A stretch of DNA of 64,000 nt from Octopus vulgaris (Eukaryota), in assembly GCA_951406725.2 (NCBI GenBank), contig OX597827.1, positions 29,512,001 through 29,576,000 of the forward strand, read 5' to 3'. Made by a program: the position numbers and the translations under genes. This document shows, in pieces, positions 442-64,000 of this stretch (its first letter is position 1; each line of letters begins with the position of its first letter). The notes beneath the pieces were generated by a model that worked only from the letters and a program-made list of their open reading frames with translations, was not told the origin of the DNA and ran no database searches.

Positions 442-2370
442 CATATGGTTGATTTTTGCTTTGTATTTGTACAAGTTGACTCCAATTCTCACCCAGAGAC
501 CTCAAGAGACAAGTTGGAAGTTCAAGTTGGTGTTATGCCTAGGGTGTCATATATTTGGTTTTGCACATAGTATTGTTCAAGAGAATGTTTAAGAAAACAT
601 AAGAAAATTATAAGTTTGTTTTAAAATTTAAGATTACATAGAAAGTATTTTACGTAGGATATGGGCAGTTCCCACGAGCACTATCTTTTGAATTAATTTC
701 TGCCATTTGGGGGTTTCCTGATATCTGAGCTAGGTAGGAACCAACCCCTTTTACTATCATTCCTAGGGCACCTATGACAACAGGTATTGTTTTAATCTTC
801 AAGTTCCTTTGTTAGCCAATTTCTATTTCAAGATCTTTATATTTGCTCAGTTTTTGGTAGGTCTTGACAGATATATTTATGTCGATTGGGACAGTCATAT
901 CAATGAGGCAGCATGATTTTTGTCTGAAGTCTTTCAATATATTCTCTTGCTTTTTGCATCTATCTTTCGGTCAGTTTGAACGGTGACGTTCCAGAGGAGT
1001 GAAATGTGATCATTCTCAAGCACTTTTATCATGTGGCAGGTCCAAGTTTTTGAAAATTACCCAGTGAATATACTGTGCTGCTCTATCATGCCTCTTGAGA
1101 TACTCTGTAGGCGCAAGAAGACTGCACTTGGAGACAACATGATCAATGATTTCATTTTGTTGTTGACATACACGACATGTTGGGCTACTGCCGTTCTTTA
1201 ATATGTCGGCCTGGTAGTTCCTTGTAGGTAGGCATTGACCTTGAGCTGCTATGATAAACCCTTCTGTTTCAGATTTTAAGCCAGAGACCATTAGCCATTG
1301 ATGGGTAAGGGCTTTGTCAACATCTACATTATTTGTTCTCTTTGGGTATTTGCCATTGAGAGGTTTTTCTTGCCATTTATCATTCAGAATATCTAAGGCG
1401 GCAGTTTTAGCACGGGTTTTCATGCGCTTAGCTTTTTCTGTGCTTATTTCTTGTATATCTAATTCCGAAATTTGTTGTATTCGGAATTCACTTAGATATT
1501 CCTTTGCCTGTTTTGTTACTGATTATGATGCTTTCTTGTTTTCATGCTTTAAGACAGGTTTTAACATCCAGTCCTCAGAGTTTTTCAGGTAGGTGTCTAG
1601 GCCAATTGTGGCAATCTTCATTGTTAATTCCAGTAGTAAAAGTCCACGGCCACCCTCTTTTCTTGGCAGATAAAGTCGTTCTATATCTGCCTTAGGGTGG
1701 TGCAGTCTATGCGTTGTCAACAATTTTCGTGTTTTACTGTCAAGATTGCATATTTCATTAATTGACCAGTTAATGATATTGAAACTGTAAGTCACGACTG
1801 GTTTGGCTAAAGTATTGATCGCTTCGATCCTTTTTCTTTCTTTTTTTTGCATTCAGCTGTCTTGAGTATTGCTCTCACCCCGCGATAACATTCTCTTCTG
1901 ATCCTTTCCCTCATCATTGAATGTTTGATTCCATAACCTTCAACTACCACTAGCTATTTGTAGCTCTCCGCTGGCTCTAATTCCTTTATGACATTCTGCT
2001 GGTCAAGGTTAACGTTAGATGTTTCTGTCAATTTTCCTTTGATAAAGGTCGCCTTTGCACATTTATCGAGGCCAAATTGCATCCTCATGTCATCACAGAA
2101 TTGCTAGTAAGCCCTGTAATTGTTGGTCACTTTTTGCAAATAATAATCCATGTCAAATAGATTATTTATATTTTTATCATACATTTTACAGCCATACTGT
2201 ATATCATCGAGCAATTTCGAGAAAGGTATTAAGGCTAGACATAAGAGCATTGTTGAGAGAGAGTTACTCTGGAAAACGCCACATGAAATTCTTACAACTC
2301 CAGCATTCAGAGATTCATTGCCACTGATCAAAGTCAGTGTGGTTCTCCATGATCTCATACTTACAGACAA
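442..2370 (-). mobile_element. R4/Dong-like RLE LINE, family A, 5'-truncated and decayed
   Basis: Fragmented ORFs give RT motifs (degenerate GVFQSNSLS, FDMD), RLYLPRKEGGRGL, ETEGFIIAAQ, CRVC...HVVSKC (CCHC), and the endonuclease C-terminus ending GTAHILRKILSM* at 634. A 3'UTR runs into an (AAT)n tail. RT segment matches 63820-64000; 3'UTR matches 45082-45236 and 59925-60110. Confidence 0.9.
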
Positions 2371-2409
2371 GAGGTCTCAGAGGGTTTCTTTCCAAAATTA
2401 TTATTATTA

Positions 2410-2620
2410 GCGGTGAACTAGTAGAATTGCTAGCAAGCTGGACGAAATGCTTAGCAGTATTTCGCCTGTCGCTATGTTCTGAGTTCAATTTCTGCTGAGG
2501 TTGACTTTACCCTTCATCCTTTCAAGGTCGATAAAATAAGTACCAGTTGAACACTGGGGTCGATGTAATCTACTTAACCCGTCCCCAAAAGTTTCTGCCC
2601 TACTGGAAAAATTTGGACCC
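2410..2620 (+). mobile_element. tRNA-derived SINE family S1 (Meta-domain-like core)
   Basis: Head with B-box-like GAGTTCAATTTC and core CTTCATCCTTTCAAGGTCGATAAAATAAGTACCAG, present in many copies across the window. Confidence 0.75.
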
Positions 2621-2691
<71 letters not shown>

Positions 2692-2714
2692 CATTATTAT
2701 TATTATTATTATTA

Positions 2715-3260
2715 CTGAGTGGGAGAGCAGCGCATGTCATCAAGGTATATATAAACGAAGCCCAATATACCCATCATTACTACCCGTCTGATAAGAGTTC
2801 ACCAGGCACATATAGCACAACAATATGTGCGTGACATGGTGGTCTCATATCAAGATAAACAGCATATGACCTCGCAGGAGGGGCCCAATTAGAATTTTCT
2901 TCAGGTGAATAGCCCATTCCTCTCAAAAGGTCCCTGAATAAGGATTGTTTAAGGATGTTGAACGAACCACCCATGTTTCCAAAGGTGAGTTATCTAAACA
3001 CCAAAAATTCCTCTCAACACATGGCTATGATGCTTCCCCACTACTTCTGCTTGTGATCAGAGATGCACATATTGTCAGCCACCAAGGGACGTGCTCAACT
3101 GGTTAAGGTCAAACAACTGACAAGCAAATCCGTGGTATTGAGCAGAATATTTGCTGTAGCCCATCTTTTATACCAAGACAAAACAATGTACATGATAACA
3201 CTTCCAATCAGTTAAGATCAGAAGCTATGAGACCCACCGTCTTGTATTGCACCAGGACAT
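2715..3260 (-). mobile_element. ~550-bp non-coding (AAT)n-associated element (SINE-like), full length
   Basis: Homologous to 4379-4931, 7705-8115, 55769-55836 and 60309-60857. Flanked by (TTA)n on both sides, with no credible ORF. Confidence 0.8.
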
Positions 3261-3288
3261 ATGATTATTACTATTATTATTATTACTA

Positions 3289-3431
<143 letters not shown>

Positions 3432-3464
3432 CATCATCATCATCATCATCATCATTATTATTAT

Positions 3465-4355
3465 TTTCTTTCTCACTTCAAATTTTCTTCCATTTCTCGC
3501 GAAGTGTTTTCCGTACACCTAGGGCAGAGAAGCTCATTGTATGCATTCCCAGATTACACACGCAAATTCACAGGTAAAATATGTATTTAAAAATTAATAA
3601 ATAAATAAATTCATGAATGGATGTTGTTTTCACAACGATAAATGATCTTCTCAGTACATGAGTCGTTCCAGTTAACACGATTTTTTGCACTTCCTGTAGG
3701 GATGGTAAGCCTGGTATCATTTTCAAACAGGTTTCAGTACTTTTTTTTTTATCATTCCTAGAGATCCTACATGCCACATTTTTTATCATTCATAGAAATC
3801 CTACATGCCACATTTTTTTCAATTTCTATATGCTAGTCTTTATATTTACTTATCTTGTCAAATTTTTTCGCCTCTATATTGTGATCACAAGGAATACTCA
3901 TGTCAATTAATAAACACCCCTTTTTGTCTGATCTTCTATAATAATATCCGGTTTATTAGCTTTTATAGATTTGTAGGTATGTACGGGGATGTCCCAGAGA
4001 ATCGGCACATTCAGGATGGGTGTTTATACACAGCTTCAGGATGGGTGTTTATACCATTTGTCAGCGGTTTTGATTTTATAATGCCGACATATTGTCCAGT
4101 ATAAATATTGGCCGATTCTGTCATGTCTTGCTTTATATTCTACAGGTGCTAAGACTCTACACCCTGAGATTAGGTGGTCTATAATTTCAATCTCATCGTT
4201 ACAGAATCGGAATTTTGGGTCAGCTCCGTTTCTTTTCACATTGGCTTGGTAGTTCCGGGCTAATAAGCTTTGGTCTTGAGTAGCTAATATGAAATCTTCA
4301 CTCTCTGTTTTTAGCCCTGAGCTTCGTAACCATTGATGCGTGTGTTTCTGGTCGA
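3465..4355 (-). mobile_element. R4/Dong-like RLE LINE, family C, 3' fragment
   Basis: HQWLRSSGLKTESEDFILATQDQSL, DHLISGC...RHDRIGQYLYW, PSLQEVQKIVLTGTTHVLRR. 3'UTR matches 59655-59728. Bounded by (TTA)n. Confidence 0.85.
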
Positions 4356-4378
4356 TTATTATCATTATTATTATTATT

Positions 4379-4931
4379 AGAGAGCAGTGCATGCCATCAA
4401 AGTGACACTGGGGTAAAATATACGAAGCCCAATATACCCATCATGACTACCCGTCTGATAAAGGTACACCAGGCACATGCATCACAACCATATGTGCGCG
4501 ACATGGTGATCACATATCAAGATAAACAGCACATGACCTTGCAGGTGGGGCCCAGTTAGAATTTTCTTCAGGTTGAGTAGCCCATCCCGCTCAAACGGTC
4601 CCTGAATAAGGGTTGTTTAAGGATGTTGAAAAAACCACCCATGTTTCCAGAGGTGAATTATTCAAACCCCAAAGAATCCCTCTCAACACATGGCTATGAT
4701 GCTCCCCCACTACTTCTGCTCGTGATCAGAGATGCACATATCGTCAGCCACTAAGGGACATGCTCAACTGGTTACGGTCAAACAACTGACAAGCAAATCT
4801 GTGGTATTGAGCAGAATATTTGCTGTAGCCCATCTTTTATACCAAGACAAAACAATGTACATGATAACACTTCCAATCAGTTAAGATCAGAAGCCATGAG
4901 AGCCACTGCCTGGTACTGCATCAGGGCATTT
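4379..4931 (-). mobile_element. ~550-bp non-coding (AAT)n-associated element, full length
   Basis: 5' end AAATGCCCTGATGCAGTACCAGG, 3' end ...GGCATGCACTGCTCTCT followed by (AAT)n. Flanked by microsatellite on both sides. Confidence 0.85.
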
Positions 4932-4947
4932 ATTATTATTATTCTTA

Positions 4948-5043
<96 letters not shown>

Positions 5044-7704: not shown

Positions 7705-8115
7705 GCTGCAGCAAATATTCTGCTCAATACCACGGATTTGCTTGTCAGTTGTTTGACCTTAACCAGTTGACTATGTCCCTTAGTGGCTGACGGTATGTGC
7801 ATCTCTGATCATGACCAGAAGTAGTGGGGGAGCATCATAGCCGTGTGTTGAAAGGAATTCTTAGAGGTTTGGATAATTCACATCTGGAAACATGGGTGTT
7901 TTGTACATCCTTAAACAATCCTTATCCAGGGACCTTTTGAGAGGGATGGGTTACTCGACCCGCAAGGTCATGTGCTACTTATCTTGATATGAGATCAGCA
8001 TGTCGCGCACATATGGTTGTGATGCATGTGCCTAGTGTACCCTTATCAGACGGATAGTCATGATGGGTATACTGGGCTTCGTATATTTTACCCCAGTGTC
8101 GCTTTGATGACACTC
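7705..8115 (+). mobile_element. 5'-truncated copy of the ~550-bp (AAT)n-associated element
   Basis: Homologous to 60412-60857 and followed by a degenerate AAT tail. Confidence 0.8.
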
Positions 8116-8844
8116 AATAATCATAACAATAATGATTATAATTATAATGCAAGGGGAGATGAAAATGTTAAATTGTTGATAGACCTGAAGAAGAGTCTGT
8201 TTGAAAGCTTGATGGGGTAAGCATTTAGAGTCAGCTTCAAATATGTGTGTGTATATATAAATATATATGTGGATATATGTATATGTATGTATATATACAG
8301 ACACACATACTCACACACACTAATATAGTACAGAACATCTATCGTGTTTGCCTTTAATGCACATGTGTGTATAAATACACACATATATATGGACACGTGC
8401 ATACATACATATATATTTACATGCACTTATACATACATATATACATACATACTTACATGCACACATACATGCACGCATATACACACACATACATACATAC
8501 ATACATACATACATACATACATACATACATACATACATACATACATACACACTCGAGTATGTGTAGTGTGTATAATATACGTTTGAAAATCGAAAAAGAA
8601 AAATATTTCAAACGAAGGAGAGAAGGGGTTGGAGGTGAGACTATCGGCGTGACAGACAGACTGAATGGCAAGGGATGGGTGGGGTTTGGGACGAGCTATA
8701 GCGATTGAAGAGTGTGTGAGAGAAATAAACGAGACGTGGAAGCTTGAGATAAGAACTTTAAGGATTGAATACGACTTGAAAGGCTGCAGCAGACGGTCAC
8801 TTTGCTTAGGGCTAAATACAAATGGTGGATATGAAGGATTAGGG

Positions 8845-12237: not shown

Positions 12238-12309
<72 letters not shown>

Positions 12310-36292: not shown

Positions 36293-36960
36293 ACAACAAT
36301 AGCACTACAGAGAGCGTAAACCTCCGCCAAGGCAACACCAAAGTCCTCTCAACGATTAGCCAGAGATGATTTTTAAAATGAGAATATCCGAAACAAGAGC
36401 ATTCGGAGAGCGCAAACCTCCGCCAAGGCAACGCCAACGTCCTCTCAACGATTAGCCAGAGATGATTTTTAAAATGAGAATATCCGAAATAAGAGCATTC
36501 GGAGAGCGCAAACCTCCGCCAAGGCAACGCCAACGTCCTCTCAACGATTAGCCAGAGATGATTTTTAAAATGAGAATATCCGTAACAAGAGCATTCGGAG
36601 AGAGCAAACCTCTGCAAAGGCAACACCAACGTCCTCTCAACTATTAGTCAGAGATAATTTTTGGAAATGAGAATATCTGAAAAAAACTCAACTGCTCTCA
36701 CAAACAGGAATACTAAAAATGAACCTGACTGCTCTCAAAAATTAAGTAAAAAAACAGGAGAAATAATCCAGAATCCTTGTCCGGTACCGGATCGATCGCA
36801 AAATCTAATCAATGCGTGCCAGTCAAGAGACCAAACATCCCTGAAAGCTTCATCCGAATCCATCTAATGGTTCTTAAGATATTGTGTCCACGGACAAACA
36901 ACTAGCAAACAAACACGATTGAAAAACAATACCTCTGCCTTCGCTAAGATGGAGGTAATA
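36293..36960 (+). mobile_element. Helentron-associated (HINE-like) non-autonomous element with ~3.8 x 96-bp tandem 5' repeat
   Basis: 96-bp unit containing AAACCTCCGCCAAGGC; 3' hairpin ACCTCTGCCTTCGCTAAGATGGAGGT. Partial homologues at 49874-50075 and ~51630-51822. Confidence 0.6.
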
Positions 36961-44855: not shown

Positions 44856-45020
44856 AGGCGCAGGATTGGCTGTGTGGTAAGTAGCTAGGCGCAGGAGTGG
44901 CTGTGTGGTAAGTAGCTAGGCGCAGGAGTGGCTGTATGGTAAGTAGCTTGTTTACCAACCACATGGTTCCAGATTCAGTCTCACTGCGTGGCACCTTTGG
45001 GAACTGTCTTCTACTATATA
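44856..45020 (+). mobile_element. S2 SINE with triplicated 31-bp 5' head
   Basis: AGGCGCAGGA(T/G)TGGCTGT(G/A)TGGTAAGTAGCT x3 at 44856, 44887 and 44918. Confidence 0.85.
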
Positions 45021-45081
45021 TTTCTTTACTGCCCACAAGGGGCTAAACATAGAGGGGACACTTTTTTTTTAATAAATTTAT

Positions 45082-45236
45082 TTATTAGACATTCACTAGT
45101 ACAACACCAAAAAACCCCCAAAATATATGGCACACTAGGCATAACAACAACGTGAACTTCCAACCTGTTGTCTCTTGAGGTCTCTGGGTGAGACTTGGAG
45201 CCAACTTGTACAAACATAAAGCAAAATTCAAACATA
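45082..45236 (+). mobile_element. LINE family A 3'UTR fragment
   Basis: Matches 59960-60110 and the reverse complement of 442-590. Followed by ~330 bp of (AAT)n. Confidence 0.8.
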
Positions 45237-45311
<75 letters not shown>

Positions 45312-45449: not shown

Positions 45450-46848
<1,399 letters not shown>

Positions 46849-46888: not shown

Positions 46889-50075
<3,187 letters not shown>

Positions 50076-51382: not shown

Positions 51383-51849
51383 ATATGTATGTATAATATA
51401 TAATATATATATATTATAAATATATGTTAGTGTTATTTAATTTCTGAACGGTTTTGCTGCCGTTTGTTGATGTAGTTTTGGTTTCTTTATCCATCAGTTT
51501 CTGCTAGGATAAGATGCAGGCAAAATTAACAATAGAGAAACGGAAATAAAACTTTGGAAACAGCCGAAAGGGAGATAATTGAGAAAGACTTGAAAGTGAA
51601 CGTAAGATCGTAATCATGTAAAGTAAATATAACAAACAATCCAGAAAACCTGCCCGGGACTGAATCGATCCCAAAATTTAATCATTTCGTGCCAGTCAAG
51701 AGGCCAAACATCCCTAAAAGTTTCATCCGAATCCATCCAGCGGTTCTTGAGATATCTTCTCCAGGAACAAACAAACACGACTGAAAGCAGTAGCTCAACC
51801 TTCACTAAGACGGAGGTAATAATGATTTCAAATTTTTTCTACAAATTTT

Positions 51850-53445: not shown

Positions 53446-53478
<33 letters not shown>

Positions 53479-53544
53479 CATCAGCATCAACATCATCATT
53501 ATTATTATTCAGTTCTATATTTAAGAGATGAGAAATTATGTACA

Positions 53545-53716
<172 letters not shown>

Positions 53717-53754
53717 TAATAATAAAAATAATAATAATAATATAATAATAATAA

Positions 53755-53804
<50 letters not shown>

Positions 53805-53807
<3 letters not shown>

Positions 53808-55730
53808 GATCCTCGAAACACTAGCCATTAACAAAGTAGCACCAATAATCATAAAATTCATAGAGGACTCTATGAATAAATGGCAAACAGTCCTGCACCT
53901 CCAAACAAAAGAGGGACTCATGAAAACTAAAGACATCCCCATTAGAAGAGGAATATTCCAGGGAGACACGCTCTCTCCACTCCTTTTCTGCTTGGCACTG
54001 TCACCTCTATCTGATATGCTAAATAGAACTGGATGCGGATATAAATGTTACGGCAAAACGATCAGCCACCTTTTATATATGGATGACCTAAAACTATACG
54101 CTGCAAATGACAAACAGCTGGAAACACTATTAAACACAGTTCATGGATTTACCAAAGAAATAGATATGAAATTTGGATTAGAAAAATGCGCCAAAGTAAC
54201 CATGAAAAGAGGAAAACTAGTTAAGAGTAACAACATCACACTAGATAAAACCAATGAAATAAAAGAATTAGACCAAAGCCAAACTTACAAATACTTAGGA
54301 ATCCATGAACTAGATAAAACACAACACACACAAATGAAAGAGAAAATAAAAAAAGAATATTATAGACGAGTTAGATCAATACTAAACACAGAGCTCAATG
54401 CTGAAAACAAGATAATAGGTATCAACACTTTAGCTGTCCCAGTTATAAGTTACAGCTAAAATATCCTTAACTGGACACGAAATGAACTGACCAAAATAGA
54501 TAGGAAAACAAGAAAAATAATGACAGGATCTAGGATGCATCACCCAAAATCTGACATAGAAAGACTATATATACAACGTATAGAAGGTGGTAGAGGCCTT
54601 ATACAGCTGGAAAACTACTATAAAATAACCACCATAGGACTGCAAAAATATCTACTTCAGAAGGAAGGAAAACTGATCCAGATAGCGGCAAAACACGAGC
54701 AAAACAAAAAACTGTTCTCAGTATTTAAGGAAGCTGACAAATACAAACAAGAATTCATACCACCTAATAAACATGAAGAAGAAGAAGAAGATGAAGAAAC
54801 AACAAAAGCTATAAAACAAATGAAATCCAAACTAAAAATAGAACAGCAACGAACCATGATAAAACGATGGCAAGAAAAGCCCCTTCATGGTAAATACTGG
54901 ACTAAACTAAACGCAAAAGAAATAGACAAAGAAAAATCCCAGCAATGGTTGAGAAGCTCAGGACTCAAAGCAGAAACAGAGGGATTTTTAATTGCAGCAC
55001 AAGACCAAAGCCTCCCCACCAGAAATTACCAAAAACATGTAATGAAAAGAAATATTACAAGTAACTGCAGAATATGTAGAGATGGACAAGAAACAATAAA
55101 TCATATTATCTCTAGCTGCCCAGTCCTGGCTAAGAAGGAATATATTCACAGACATGACAGAGTTGGAACCTACATACATTGGAAGCTATGCCAACATTAT
55201 GGAATAACAACAGAAAAAAGATGGTATAGGCACACACCAGAAAAGGTCACAGAAAACGAGAAAGCAACCATACTCTGGGATATGTCGATACACACAGACA
55301 GAGAAATTAAGGCCAACAGACCAGATATAGTTGTCAGAGACCATGAAGAAAAAAATGCTTTCTAATTGATGTATCAATACCGGCAGATGACAACGTGTCT
55401 CTAAAAGAAATGGAGAAACTCTCAAAATACAAAGACCTGCAAATAGAGATAACTAGAATGTGGAATCTGAAAACAGAAACAATTCCTATCATAGTAGGTG
55501 CATTAGGCATGATAAAAAATATTCAGACAAATACATAACAAAAACACCAGGACTTACAAACACATATAGCATACAGAAAATTGCACTACTAGGCACTGCA
55601 CACATCCTAAGCAGAACACTTTCCATACAATAACCATCAAAGCATCACAACAAATCACAGCACATACCCAAGGCACACAGAGCTGCGCTCGGTAGTGAAG
55701 TGAAAGCACGTTATAAAAATAAAACTACTG
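53805..55730 (+). mobile_element. R4/Dong-like RLE LINE, family B, copy 2
   Basis: Highly similar to 47649-49666 (ORFs 53872-54459 and 54520-55365). (AAT)n lies on both sides. Confidence 0.95.
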
Positions 55731-55768: not shown

Positions 55769-55836
55769 ATGGGTATATTGGGCTTCGAATATTTTACCCC
55801 AGTGTCACTTTGATGGCATGCACTGCTCTCTCACAC
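55769..55836 (+). mobile_element. Extreme 3' fragment of the ~550-bp (AAT)n-associated element
   Basis: ATGGGTATATTGGGCTTCG...GGCATGCACTGCTCTCTCACAC followed by (AAT)n, inside the tail of family B copy 2. Confidence 0.85.
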
Positions 55837-57181
<1,345 letters not shown>

Positions 57182-57797: not shown

Positions 57798-57854
<57 letters not shown>

Positions 57855-58032
57855 CAACAACAACAACAACAACAATAATAAAATAATATTTTAAAAGAAT
57901 AGACGTAACTCTTGGCAAAGGTAAACAGTCAACACACTCTTCGTCTTGACTAATGATGATGATGATGATGATAACAATAATACTAATAATAATAATAACA
58001 ACAACAACAACAACAACAGCAACAACAACAAC

Positions 58033-59728
<1,696 letters not shown>

Positions 59729-59761
59729 TAATAATAATAATAATAATAATAATAATGTTAA

Positions 59762-60110
59762 TAATAAGACTAAAACAATACCTGTTGTCATATCATGGGA
59801 ATGATAGCAAAAGGGGGCTGACCGCTACCTAACTCAGAAACCAGGAAACTCCAAAATGGCAGAAATTCAAAAGATAGTGCTCATGGGAACTGCTCATATC
59901 CTACGCAACATACTTTCTATGTAATCTCAAGTTTTAAAACATACATAATTTTTTTTTCTTAAGGCATTCACTAGTACAACACTAAATACAATATCAAATA
60001 TATGGCACACTAGGCATAACAACAATACGAACTTCCAACCTGTTGTCTCTTGAGATCTCTGGGTGAGACTTGGAGCCAACTTGTACAAATATAAAGCAAA
60101 AGTCAAACAT
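59762..60110 (+). mobile_element. LINE family A 3' fragment
   Basis: AEIQKIVLMGTAHILRNILSM* plus a 3'UTR matching 442-636 (reverse complement). Flanked by (AAT)n. Confidence 0.85.
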
Positions 60111-60119
60111 ATAATAATG

Positions 60120-60216
<97 letters not shown>

Positions 60217-60230
60217 TGATGATGATGATG

Positions 60231-60306
<76 letters not shown>

Positions 60307-60308
60307 TA

Positions 60309-60857
60309 AAATGCCCTGATGCAGTACCAGACAGTGGCTCTCATGACTTCTGATCTTAACTGATTGCAAGTGTTATTATGTACATTGTTTTGTCTTGGCA
60401 TAAAAGATGGGCCACAGCAAATATTCTGCTCAATACCACAGATTTGCTTGTCAGTTGTTTGACCATAACCGCTTGAGCATGTCCCTCAGTGGCTGATGAT
60501 ATGTGCATCTCTGATCATAAGCAGAAGTAGTGGGGGAGCATCATAGCCGTGTGTTGAAAGAAATTCTGGATAATTCCCCTTTGGAAACCTGAGTGCTTCG
60601 TTCAGCATCCTTAAACAACCCTTATTCAGAGACCTTTTGAGCGGGATGGGTTACTCGACCTGAAGAAAATCCCAACTGGACCCCACCTGCAAGGTCATGT
60701 GCTGTTTATCTTGATATAAGATCACCATGTCATGCACATACGCTTGTGATGTATGTGCCTGGTGTACCCTTATCAGACGGGTAGTGATGATGGGTATACT
60801 GGGCTTCGTATATTTTACCCCAATGTCACTTTGATGGCATGCACTGCTCTCTCAGTC
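60309..60857 (+). mobile_element. ~550-bp non-coding (AAT)n-associated element, full length
   Basis: Same 5' end (AAATGCCCTGATGCAGTACC) and 3' end as 4379-4931. (AAT)n lies on both sides. Confidence 0.85.
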
Positions 60858-60921
<64 letters not shown>

Positions 60922-61829
60922 TAATAATAATAATAAGTGAGTAATTTGAATTTCCCTCAAAATAAGTTAAGGAACTTACATATCTACAGCTCATACGTAC
61001 ACCTAACAAGAAAAATTAGAAACATAATATCTCCAATTTTGTGTGAACATTTAGTCGTCTCTCATGACTATAAGAATGTGTAAAATTGCCTTTTATTGTA
61101 ACAACACTATTAAATGCATGATAAAAAATTATGGAATTAAGCACCTGCTAATATATACATACAACTGAATTCAGAAATTTAAAAGATATATACATAACAT
61201 TGAATTCAGAAATTTAAAAAATCCTCGACGTGAACATCAGATAATATGTGTGTGAGTATACATATACATATACATATGTATGTGGAAAGGAAGAAAAGAG
61301 AAAGGAAAAAAAATAATAAATGTAAACAGGTTTGACCTTTTACTGACCATTAATGTCCTTTGCTATTCGGCTATCTCTCCATCATCTGCTGAATCTATTT
61401 ATAGACACATAGAACATGACCTCTTTAACTAACTATTCCCCCACACAATGGCAGTAGTGGTGATGATGGCGAAAATGATAGGAACAAAAATAACAATAAT
61501 AAGATACTGCTGTGACTGCACATACAACAATATCATTGATGATGATGATGGTGATGGTGATGTTGATTATGATGATGATGGTGATGGTGATAGTAATAAC
61601 AATAATAACTGACAGATCCCTTTTTTTTTCTCCGTATTTTATTCTCATTATTTCGAACTAATACAGGCAGAGTGAGCCTTTTATAAATTTAAAAGAGGAA
61701 GGGAAAAGAAGGAAGGAAAAAGGGGAAGAAGGAGAAAGAGAGAAAGAGAGAGGAAAAAAGGAAGAGAAGGAGAAAAAAATGTTCGAAGATAAAACTATCA
61801 ACAAAAAAAATACAGACGAATACAGACTG

Positions 61830-64000
61830 CTAGTCTTAAGAAGCTGCGCTACGAGCAATGCTTACGTGTAGAGAACCCTAAACTGACAGATCCATCTCCT
61901 AATGTAATAATGGAAGCTCGTCATGCTTCAATGTCAACAAATCAAACTGTAAACCGCATTGGTCGTCGCGCGGATTACAAAAGACCACGTACCCGAAAAT
62001 TGAACCAAATTCTGATTGAAAAATCAGCTTCTGGATCAAATATTCCCAACACAGGAGCTGGAAGTACCCCACAACCGGAATATTCCAACAGATGGCCATC
62101 TATGTTCGTTTCCAAATAATCAAAAGAAAAAGAAGGAAAAATGGTCTAGGGAAGCTAATAAAGAAGTTCTTGCGGCCTTCTACCATGCCATATATTTCCC
62201 CACAGATAAATCTAACACTGTAAAAACATACTTAAACTGGAGACAGAAACACCCTGAAGTAAGACCCTACATAGACAGCAACAAACTTGCCAACGTCAGA
62301 AGAAACATTAAAAAAAAAAAATTACTGACTGAAGTAGAGATTGATCAAGTTAGACAAGCAATATCGGATAAAATGAACGAAGCTGCAGCTAGAGAAGATA
62401 ATACAGAGGAAATAATTATAGACCAGCCCAGGGCTGATAAAAACGAAGTAAGGATTGAAAGAGTTAGTATAAGTGATAGGCAAAGTGAAATACTCCCTGA
62501 ACCAATCATAAACACTAAGACAGATGAACATCAAATAGATAAAGAAAGTCACAGAAATATTGACCCAACAGAACTACATGAGCTAAAACATCAAATCATG
62601 ATTGAATGGCTGAAAATTAAAGAAACCAGCATGGATGAACGTGATACACTCCCTAAAATCCGCAACTCTAACCAAAACATAAAATAATTGGTAAAATCCG
62701 GCTTGCACTTAAGGATATAATTTCAGCTAATGATGTTGATATCACAAATCTCAACCACCTATACTATGCATCCGCGAAAATCTCAACGATCCTATGTGGT
62801 GTAAAGATCAGAAAACGGCAACATTCCCACAAAAAGCCTTCTTGGCAAGAGCGTTTGCAACAACAAATTAAACTATTTAGATCTGATATTGAATATTTGA
62901 AAAACCTTAAGGTTCACAAGACTACCAAACCTACAAAAACCCAAAAATTACTGAAAAAATACAATATGAAAACTATACTTGATATTGATGCCACCATAGA
63001 AACCATCAAACAAAAGGTATCTGCCAAAGCTGCCCGCATAGCGAGGTATGAAAAGCGTGTTAGATTTTTCAAGGACAACAACATGTTCAAAAATAACCCC
63101 AAGAATTTTTACAGGAAGATAGGAAAAACAGCGTTTACTGCAAGGTCTGTACCATCAAAAGAAGTGCAGGGATTTTGGAATAAAATTTGGGCAGAAGAAA
63201 AAACACACAACGAAAAGGCCCCCTGGATTGACAGAATATCTACAGAACTGGACCCCTTAGAAGAGCAAAAGTGGAAGGGTGTCAAGGTAGAAGATATAAG
63301 ATCTGCTCTCAGGAGGTCAAGCAAATGGAAGTCTCCAAGAAAGGATAAAATTCCTAACTTCTGGCTGAATGCCTTCCCAGAGAACCATGAACTGCGAACA
63401 GAACTGTACAATGATGTTTTGCAACACCCTAGTAGGATGCCTCTTGGCTAGTTAATGGGTTAACATTCCTGGTCCCTAAAAGTGAAGAAACAAATGAACC
63501 AAAAAACTATAGACCCATAACCTGCTTAACAACTATGTATAAAACGCTAACATCTGTCCTGACGGAATATACTTATAGCTTTTTAACAGACAGCAGCATA
63601 TTCCCTAATGAACAGAAAAGATGTAAACGTGGATCCTGCGTCTGTAAAGATCAACTACTCATCAATAAGATGATCTTAGAAGATTGTCACAAACGACACA
63701 AAAACTTATCAATAGTCTGGATGGACTATGAAAAGGCCTTTGATAGCCTACCACATAGCTGGATTAGGAAATGCCTGGAAATGTATAAGATAGCACCTAC
63801 TCTGCGAAACATTTTGACTGTAAGTATGAGATCATGGAGAACCACACTAACTCTGAACAGTGACAATGAATCCCTAAATGCTGGTGATGTAAAAATTTCG
63901 TGTGGAATTTTCCAGGGTGACTCACTGTCACCACTCCTCTTTTGTTTAGCCTTAATACCTCTCTCAAAACTGCTCAATGACGCGCAGTACGGGTATAAAT
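61830..64000 (+). mobile_element. R4/Dong-like RLE LINE family A, 5' half including N-terminal domain (runs off the window)
   Basis: KWSREANKEVLAAFY...LANVRRNIKKKKLLTEVEID (Myb-like N-terminus typical of the R4 clade), WKSPRKDKIPNFWL, YRPITCL, WMDYEKAFDS, GIFQGDSLSP. Interrupted by frameshifts; the 5' boundary is approximate. Confidence 0.9.

Follow-up and report, generated by a model that had tools for sequence, protein, structure and literature searches.

A discrete non-coding repeat in AAT microsatellites of Octopus vulgaris, a candidate non-autonomous partner of Dong/R4-type LINEs

Introduction

The closest described counterparts of the element reported here are EhSINE1 (with its LINE, EhLINE1), EdSINE1, and R4-N1_ED of Entamoeba, which belong to the R4 clade and which, like the octopus element, are 500-600 bp long, non-coding, without a small-RNA precursor, and with no more than weak A- and B-like words; EhSINE1 and its relatives are described as partners of R4-type LINEs (PMC2996970, PMC3747384). 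Unlike the octopus element, EhSINE1 has about 70 bp of its 3' end in common with its LINE and is polyadenylated, and its sites are T-rich and non-specific (PMC2996970), whereas the octopus element has an AAT tail and a microsatellite target. The R2 SIDEs of Drosophila are, like the octopus element, short, site-specific, and non-autonomous, with an RLE LINE as partner and read-through transcription as proposed here, but they join a 5' HDV-like ribozyme to a LINE 3'UTR and target 28S rDNA (PMC3414825); neither a ribozyme nor a LINE-derived part was detected in the octopus element. SINEU-3 of crocodilians is likewise short and target-specific, with an internal oligo-T but without a recognised promoter, and its helper was assigned through a common target; on the other hand, its head is of the U1/U2 kind, its helper is a Tx1 (APE) element, and its insertions are targeted to Mariner (PMC4494074), whereas the octopus element shows no snRNA match and lies in a microsatellite. 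The Chlamydomonas elements SINEX-1/2/4_CR, partners of RandI/Dualen, resemble the octopus element in the entries given for them, with a head of unknown origin and simple-repeat tails, but their host is an alga and their (ATT)n or (CTTT)n tails match a known partner (PMC3747384). Dong elements of Bombyx mori, Anopheles, and Biomphalaria share the TAA microsatellite target (PMC3812793), but Dong is autonomous, and cleavage has been demonstrated for its 5' HDV-like ribozyme (PMC3774820).

According to the published listing, SINE-like partners of R4-clade LINEs are confined to Entamoeba (PMC3747384), and the partners reported for bivalve SINEs are CR1, CR1-Zenon, L2, and Nimb. An abundant, microsatellite-targeted R4 partner in an animal would lengthen the list of known partners. 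Here, we analysed a 64-kb stretch of Octopus vulgaris DNA (contig OX597827.1, positions 29,512,001 to 29,576,000; hereafter the window) that carries an element of about 550 nt at 60309-60857. By comparison with these systems, it would seem to work most like EhSINE1/R4-N1, combined with the site specificity of the R2 SIDEs and the promoter puzzle of SINEU.

Results

The element is a real, non-random repeat. With 60309-60857 as query, blastn found exactly four further copies and no other similarity to the element within the window, giving the five copies in 64 kb that a sequence-only reading of this DNA had counted. Full-length copy 1 (60309..60857, plus strand, 549 nt) is bracketed by AAT arrays at 60122-60304 and 60858-60934, the upstream one forming the tail of a LINE 3' fragment from family A. 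Full-length copy 2 (4379..4931, minus strand, 553 nt, 90% by blastn) has six private substitutions, the lowest number; its upstream array lies next to a tRNA-type SINE-like repeat, and its AAT tail also flanks a LINE fragment of family B on the 5' side. Full-length copy 3 (2712..3262, minus strand, 85% over the blastn match 3260-2717) has a 10-nt deletion close to its 3' end and is embedded in AAT repeats that form the tail of a LINE fragment of family B. A 5'-truncated copy (7709..8122, plus strand, 82% over the blastn match 7709-8112, which starts at query position 107) starts from about element position 105, lacks a clean upstream array, and has internal deletions and a degenerate AAT tail preceded by a short deletion. 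Finally, a 68-nt 3' stub (55769..55837, plus strand, with 55769-55833 95% identical to query positions 482-546) occupies the tail of a LINE of family C and has AAT arrays at either side. Because their flanks are unrelated, the copies represent separate insertions. Pairwise substitution among them is 8-13%, with transitions in excess, and 2:2 splits fall at 4, 6, and 5 sites, so that no subfamilies emerge from these copies. At 0.0036 per My, the rate used in PMC13282606, we infer that a divergence of 4-7% from a master would correspond to roughly 11-18 My.

The 5' starts of the three long copies agree to 2-3 nt, each at an AAT array. Over the upstream 24 nt, the match to (AAT)n is 0.96, 0.88, 0.88, and 0.96 in four of the five copies and 0.58 for copy 7709, against a background in which 1.5% of window positions score at least 0.8. 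On array coverage, the binomial probability of four or more of five copies is about 3e-7 (5e-6 without regard to strand), values that overstate the significance because the window was picked post hoc and many of its arrays are the tails of these same elements, and because of clustering. The AAT at the 5' junction has equal polarity in four of the five element copies and in six neighbouring RLE-type LINE copies. Both truncated copies (7709 and 55769) lose the 5' side, so that polarity by truncation rests on two cases, and a fixed 3' end with 5' truncation in two of five copies is a TPRT signature; target site duplications are not readable within the AAT arrays. Blastn and alignment thus bear out the earlier claims of a common 5' end in three copies, of 5' truncation with the 3' end kept in two, and of four copies placed in (AAT)n with the polarity of the LINEs. 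The statement that all copies end in AAT tails applies to most of them; the tail of copy 7709 is degenerate, and copy 4931 is short of the last ~5 nt.

The longest stop-free frame in the three full copies is at most 69 aa, as expected from the earlier observation that there is no ORF. Inspection of one frame by eye had hinted at RLE motifs, but a coding relic of this kind was rejected after a profile HMM built from 88 RLE C-termini was run against 24 frames and all 15 reported frames scored below 0 bits. ARAGORN gave no tRNA match in the element and Rfam no match at the gathering threshold in the window, both programs also missing the tRNA-type SINE-like repeats of the window, so that a very decayed head could escape them. 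Around the copies, Rfam at E up to 10 gave sub-threshold matches alone (CrcZ on an AAT run, mir-1246 at E 0.86, and others), which were rejected as far below the gathering scores. With consensus patterns that are also quoted in PMC2996970, no A box was found at one mismatch and the B box was represented by one-mismatch words alone, and the earlier remark that there is no clear B-box holds in this form. A T4 run at element position 80 (60388..60391, plus strand), a potential Pol III terminator, is present in all three full copies, and because of it Pol III transcription of the element appears unlikely. Such runs are expected by chance and are not depleted in the element, since random sequence would carry them (they are absent from 3% of shuffles). 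A TATAAAAG word lies at element position 91 in two of the three full copies (chance 0.05). Hammerhead and HDV-like descriptors, run without a positive control, gave no match common to the copies.

Measured against the strict definition, the element is a short non-coding interspersed repeat with a simple-repeat tail but has no small-RNA head (tRNA, 5S, 7SL, or snRNA). The missing head, the lack of A and B boxes, and the T4 run inside each of the three full copies set it apart from canonical SINEs. Of its earlier description as a target-specific SINE of RLE LINEs, the discrete non-coding retroposon, the TPRT-type truncation, and the target and polarity of the LINEs were retained, whereas the term SINE in its strict sense had to be given up.

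One predicted structure recurs, a hairpin with a 13-bp stem at 60757..60804 (60757-60769 with 60792-60804, plus strand), about 55-100 nt from the 3' end, in which 51 of 52 cells are paired as against 27-48% in slid controls. Changes are one-sided at four pairs and two-sided at none, the folding z values in four copies are -2.7, -1.1, +0.4, and -4.3, and the MFE fold of copy 3262 is a different one. The hairpin is a candidate RT recognition signal, for which the fold predictions are suggestive only.

Many 5'-truncated LINEs bearing RVT_1 and zf-RVT crowd the window; they fall into about five families, lettered A-E for this analysis. Immediately 5' of copy 1, a 3' fragment of family A spans 59766..60121 (plus strand), with further family A copies at about 2396-445 (minus strand), 45077-45237, and about 61880-64000. 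RLE-type fragments with AAT on either side belong to family B (3' fragment, 58806..59729, plus strand, with a related copy at 4353-3466 on the minus strand), family C (5'-truncated, 53806..55730, plus strand, with further copies at 46890-49666 and 58175-58597), which is a candidate helper clade, and family D (3' fragment, 45574..46752, plus strand). The array directly upstream of the element is the tail of family A at 60309, of family B at 3262, and of family C at 55769, and lies beside the SINE-like repeat at 4931. Among 13 LINE 5' junctions compared with (AAT)n, six match in the same polarity at 0.92-1.0, four are intermediate (0.62-0.71), and three show no match. The database protein P0121 is 98% identical to family C and has a zinc knuckle and a PD..D region, and its best PDB match is the R2 protein (E 6.6e-29); a LINE protein search otherwise named relatives at about 47-51% in Penaeus, Exaiptasia, Asterias, and Clytia. 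By their sequence, the candidate helper LINEs are of the RLE type. We take the window families to be Dong/R4-like, a label for the putative helpers that draws on motif patterns and on the literature. At 57799-60934, families C, B, and A and then the element form a Russian-doll series in one AAT tract and in a single orientation, and a comparable chain occupies 445-5007 on the minus strand. A distinct, presumably Tx1-like LINE is represented at 55888-57075 by a 3' fragment that carries zf-RVT, ends in (ATC)n, and starts within the AAT repeats trailing the 55769 stub.

A possible partner was sought by local alignment of the element to 19 window sequences in 114 tests, of which three were flagged at p 0.007-0.02 and one more had p 0.013; after correction, none of them stayed significant. 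No 3' tail common to the element and the window LINEs was found, the best match of the last 120 nt having p=0.02 among 114 tests; this is a weak test, since none of 28 LINE-versus-LINE controls fell below p=0.03. The resemblances that were rejected as chance level in 114 tests involve the last 35 nt of family D and the 3' region of the element (p 0.02), the family A 3'UTR and the AT-rich first 150 nt, away from the tail (p 0.007), and a SINE-like repeat (p 0.02). Homology to the family A 5' region reached p 0.08 or more, the 5' ends of families B-E being absent from the window, and with the RLE HMM below 0 bits, the homology to LINE 5' or 3' ends or to an ORF that characterizes a SIDE was not found. 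Within the power of this alignment, the element does not match the 3'UTRs of the window LINEs, as had been noted from the sequence.

Two antisense pseudo-peptides of the element matched 13 distinct database proteins; as all 13 map to the element, we regard them as spurious translations of an Octopus repeat. Seven are named uncharacterised proteins of Octopus bimaculoides in UniRef, which puts the family in that species too, and to this extent the element contaminates octopus gene models. The 5' antisense frame gave eight proteins with phmmer and no candidate in an earlier word-based protein search. Five of the 13 proteins reach the 5' boundary: two of them end there, one returns into the element, and two (P0128 and P0129) continue as Y or L runs, which AAT repeats encode in antisense. 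At the 3' boundary, P0131 and P0134 carry runs of L or I. In these four, a small sample and indirect evidence, the simple repeat at the boundary has the polarity seen in the window. Because the two proteins with Y/L runs are just 38-45% identical, diverged relatives appear to keep the 5' boundary of the element. Separately, the gene model P0124 (window 60511-60312, minus strand) is Popeye-domain-like (PF04831 at E 0.001, below cutoff), and its last ~67 residues translate the antisense strand of the element, reflecting exonisation or mis-annotation. A 25-nt motif of the element had no match in GTDB genomes, and no account of the element was found in the open-licence literature, where a motif search of paper text gave no matches.

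Discussion

Our results suggest that the element is a discrete, non-coding retroposon of ~550 nt, likely non-autonomous, and probably copied in trans by the proteins of a Dong/R4-type RLE LINE. This reading follows from the target, polarity, AAT tail, and 5' truncation that are observed, and the identity of the helper is proposed on the grounds that Dong has a TAA microsatellite target and that O. vulgaris has 51 Dong-R4 families, five of them recently active (PMC13282606). It is weakened in that no tail shared with the window LINEs was found, in a test of low power, whereas known R4 partners have about 70 nt in common with theirs (PMC2996970).

Under this proposal, the RNA of the element would come from Pol II read-through out of flanking LINEs or host genes and not from Pol III, for which there is a precedent in SINEU, a target-specific family with an internal oligo-T for which flanking transcription has been proposed (PMC4494074). 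The structured 3' end and the AAT tail would be bound by the helper protein, the (AAT)n array would be nicked by the RLE, and reverse transcription would be primed there. The cDNA, on reaching the upstream AAT repeats of its template, would anneal to the target array, so that new copies would be flush at one point with no need for a promoter or ribozyme head, and early stops would give truncated copies. That annealing of cDNA and target sets the 5' end is the least certain step and is put forward tentatively; we favour it because R2 RNAs carrying upstream target (28S) sequence set a precedent, giving uniform 5' junctions for which annealing has been proposed and supported (PMC3774820). An internal Pol II start, hinted at by the TATAAAAG word, is a possible alternative for this step, as is a 5' ribozyme escaping detection, given that Bombyx Dong forms its 5' end by an HDV-like ribozyme self-cleaving at the junction (PMC3774820) and that our descriptor lacked a positive control. 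The broader notion of a headless animal retroposon, in which a passenger RNA parasitic on Dong/R4 LINEs would owe its priming tail and, through annealing of cDNA to the target, its precise 5' end to the microsatellite on either side, with no promoter, ribozyme, or LINE-derived tail, is rather doubtful, but if true it would reveal a route to SINE-like families without a small-RNA head.

The main rival explanation is that the sequence belongs to an unsampled LINE family as its distal 3'UTR; roughly 550 nt before its end, this family would carry an internal AAT array (or a hot spot of truncation), and truncation through annealing there would yield copies that pass for a discrete element. Such a UTR would account for the lack of a detected head and promoter, for the LINE tail directly upstream in three of the five copies, and for the internal T4 runs, which suit a Pol II UTR, and there is room for it among the 51 Dong-R4 families of the species (PMC13282606), of which about five are sampled in the window. 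We nevertheless consider it unlikely, as the upstream neighbours of the three full copies are unrelated (family A, family B, and a SINE-like repeat), no longer copy is present among the five, none of the five database proteins at the 5' boundary continues into a common sequence, and the 3'UTRs of the window LINEs measure just about 70-190 nt. Extension upstream into an RLE ORF, which the sequence-only reading had named as the finding that would reduce the element to a long 3'UTR, is not seen in the window, where the RLE profile stays below 0 bits. Less probable still is a non-autonomous retroposon moved by another AAT-using clade, Hero/CRE (RLE) or Tx1/RTE (APE). No 3' homology of the element to families A-E was found, some HERO (PMC4640811) and Tx1 (PMC4494074) families are reported to target microsatellites, and O. 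vulgaris has 14 Hero, 8 CRE, and 80 L1-Tx1 families (PMC13282606); yet every LINE copy scored with AAT on both sides is of the R4-like type, and the distinct zf-RVT fragment at 55888-57075, which might speak for such a helper, ends in (ATC)n and has no similarity to the element.

DNA-level or LTR-type mobility is far less plausible. A solo LTR, TRIM, or MITE preferring TAA repeats would be compatible with the TG...CA ends that can be drawn in most copies and with the TATAAAAG word, but an integrase or transposase should yield both orientations, whereas all five copies and at least three database copies have a single polarity to the array; both partial copies lose the 5' side, the element has no poly(A) signal, and terminal inverted repeats are absent from the three full copies, which together largely refute this explanation. 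A Penelope-like pseudo-LTR or a retrozyme-type element is similarly remote: Penelope-like elements make up 6.8% of the O. vulgaris genome (PMC13282606) and a CTGANGA...GAAA word pair occurs in two of four copies, but in the other two the hammerhead core is mutated, the pair lies mid-element with stems unconvincing by eye, and Rfam has no hammerhead match at E up to 10.

As a probable partner of Dong/R4-type LINEs, the element would offer a natural minimal RNA from which to learn what Dong/R4 proteins recognise and would test whether target homology alone fixes the 5' end of a retroposon. Some of the O. vulgaris families recorded as unclassified SINE (1279) or unknown (1102) in PMC13282606 may also correspond to this element.

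Other features of the window

Within the family A 5' region, HDV-like pieces (short paired segments, GG, and a hairpin) can be made out by eye at 61883-61945, where the descriptor made no call, and a 12-nt word of this region recurs at about 61609. The family C ORF includes a poly-Glu (GAA)n run of 38 units at 48618-48731, as against about 6 units in the 53806 copy. At 53447-53806, ATT and AAT arrays lie tail-to-tail with a 41-nt stub (53510-53550, minus strand) that ends like the family C terminus. Four 96-bp tandem units, presumably of the Helentron-associated type, and related dispersed copies, one of them directly behind an AAT array, occupy 36295-36685, 49874-50075, and 51634-51822. At 44856-44948, a 31-bp 5' end, presumably of a tRNA-type SINE-like repeat, is present in three tandem copies and was detected by neither ARAGORN nor Rfam. 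The AAT arrays at 12239 and 57799 stand behind short unassigned sequences that are possibly 3' ends of further elements.
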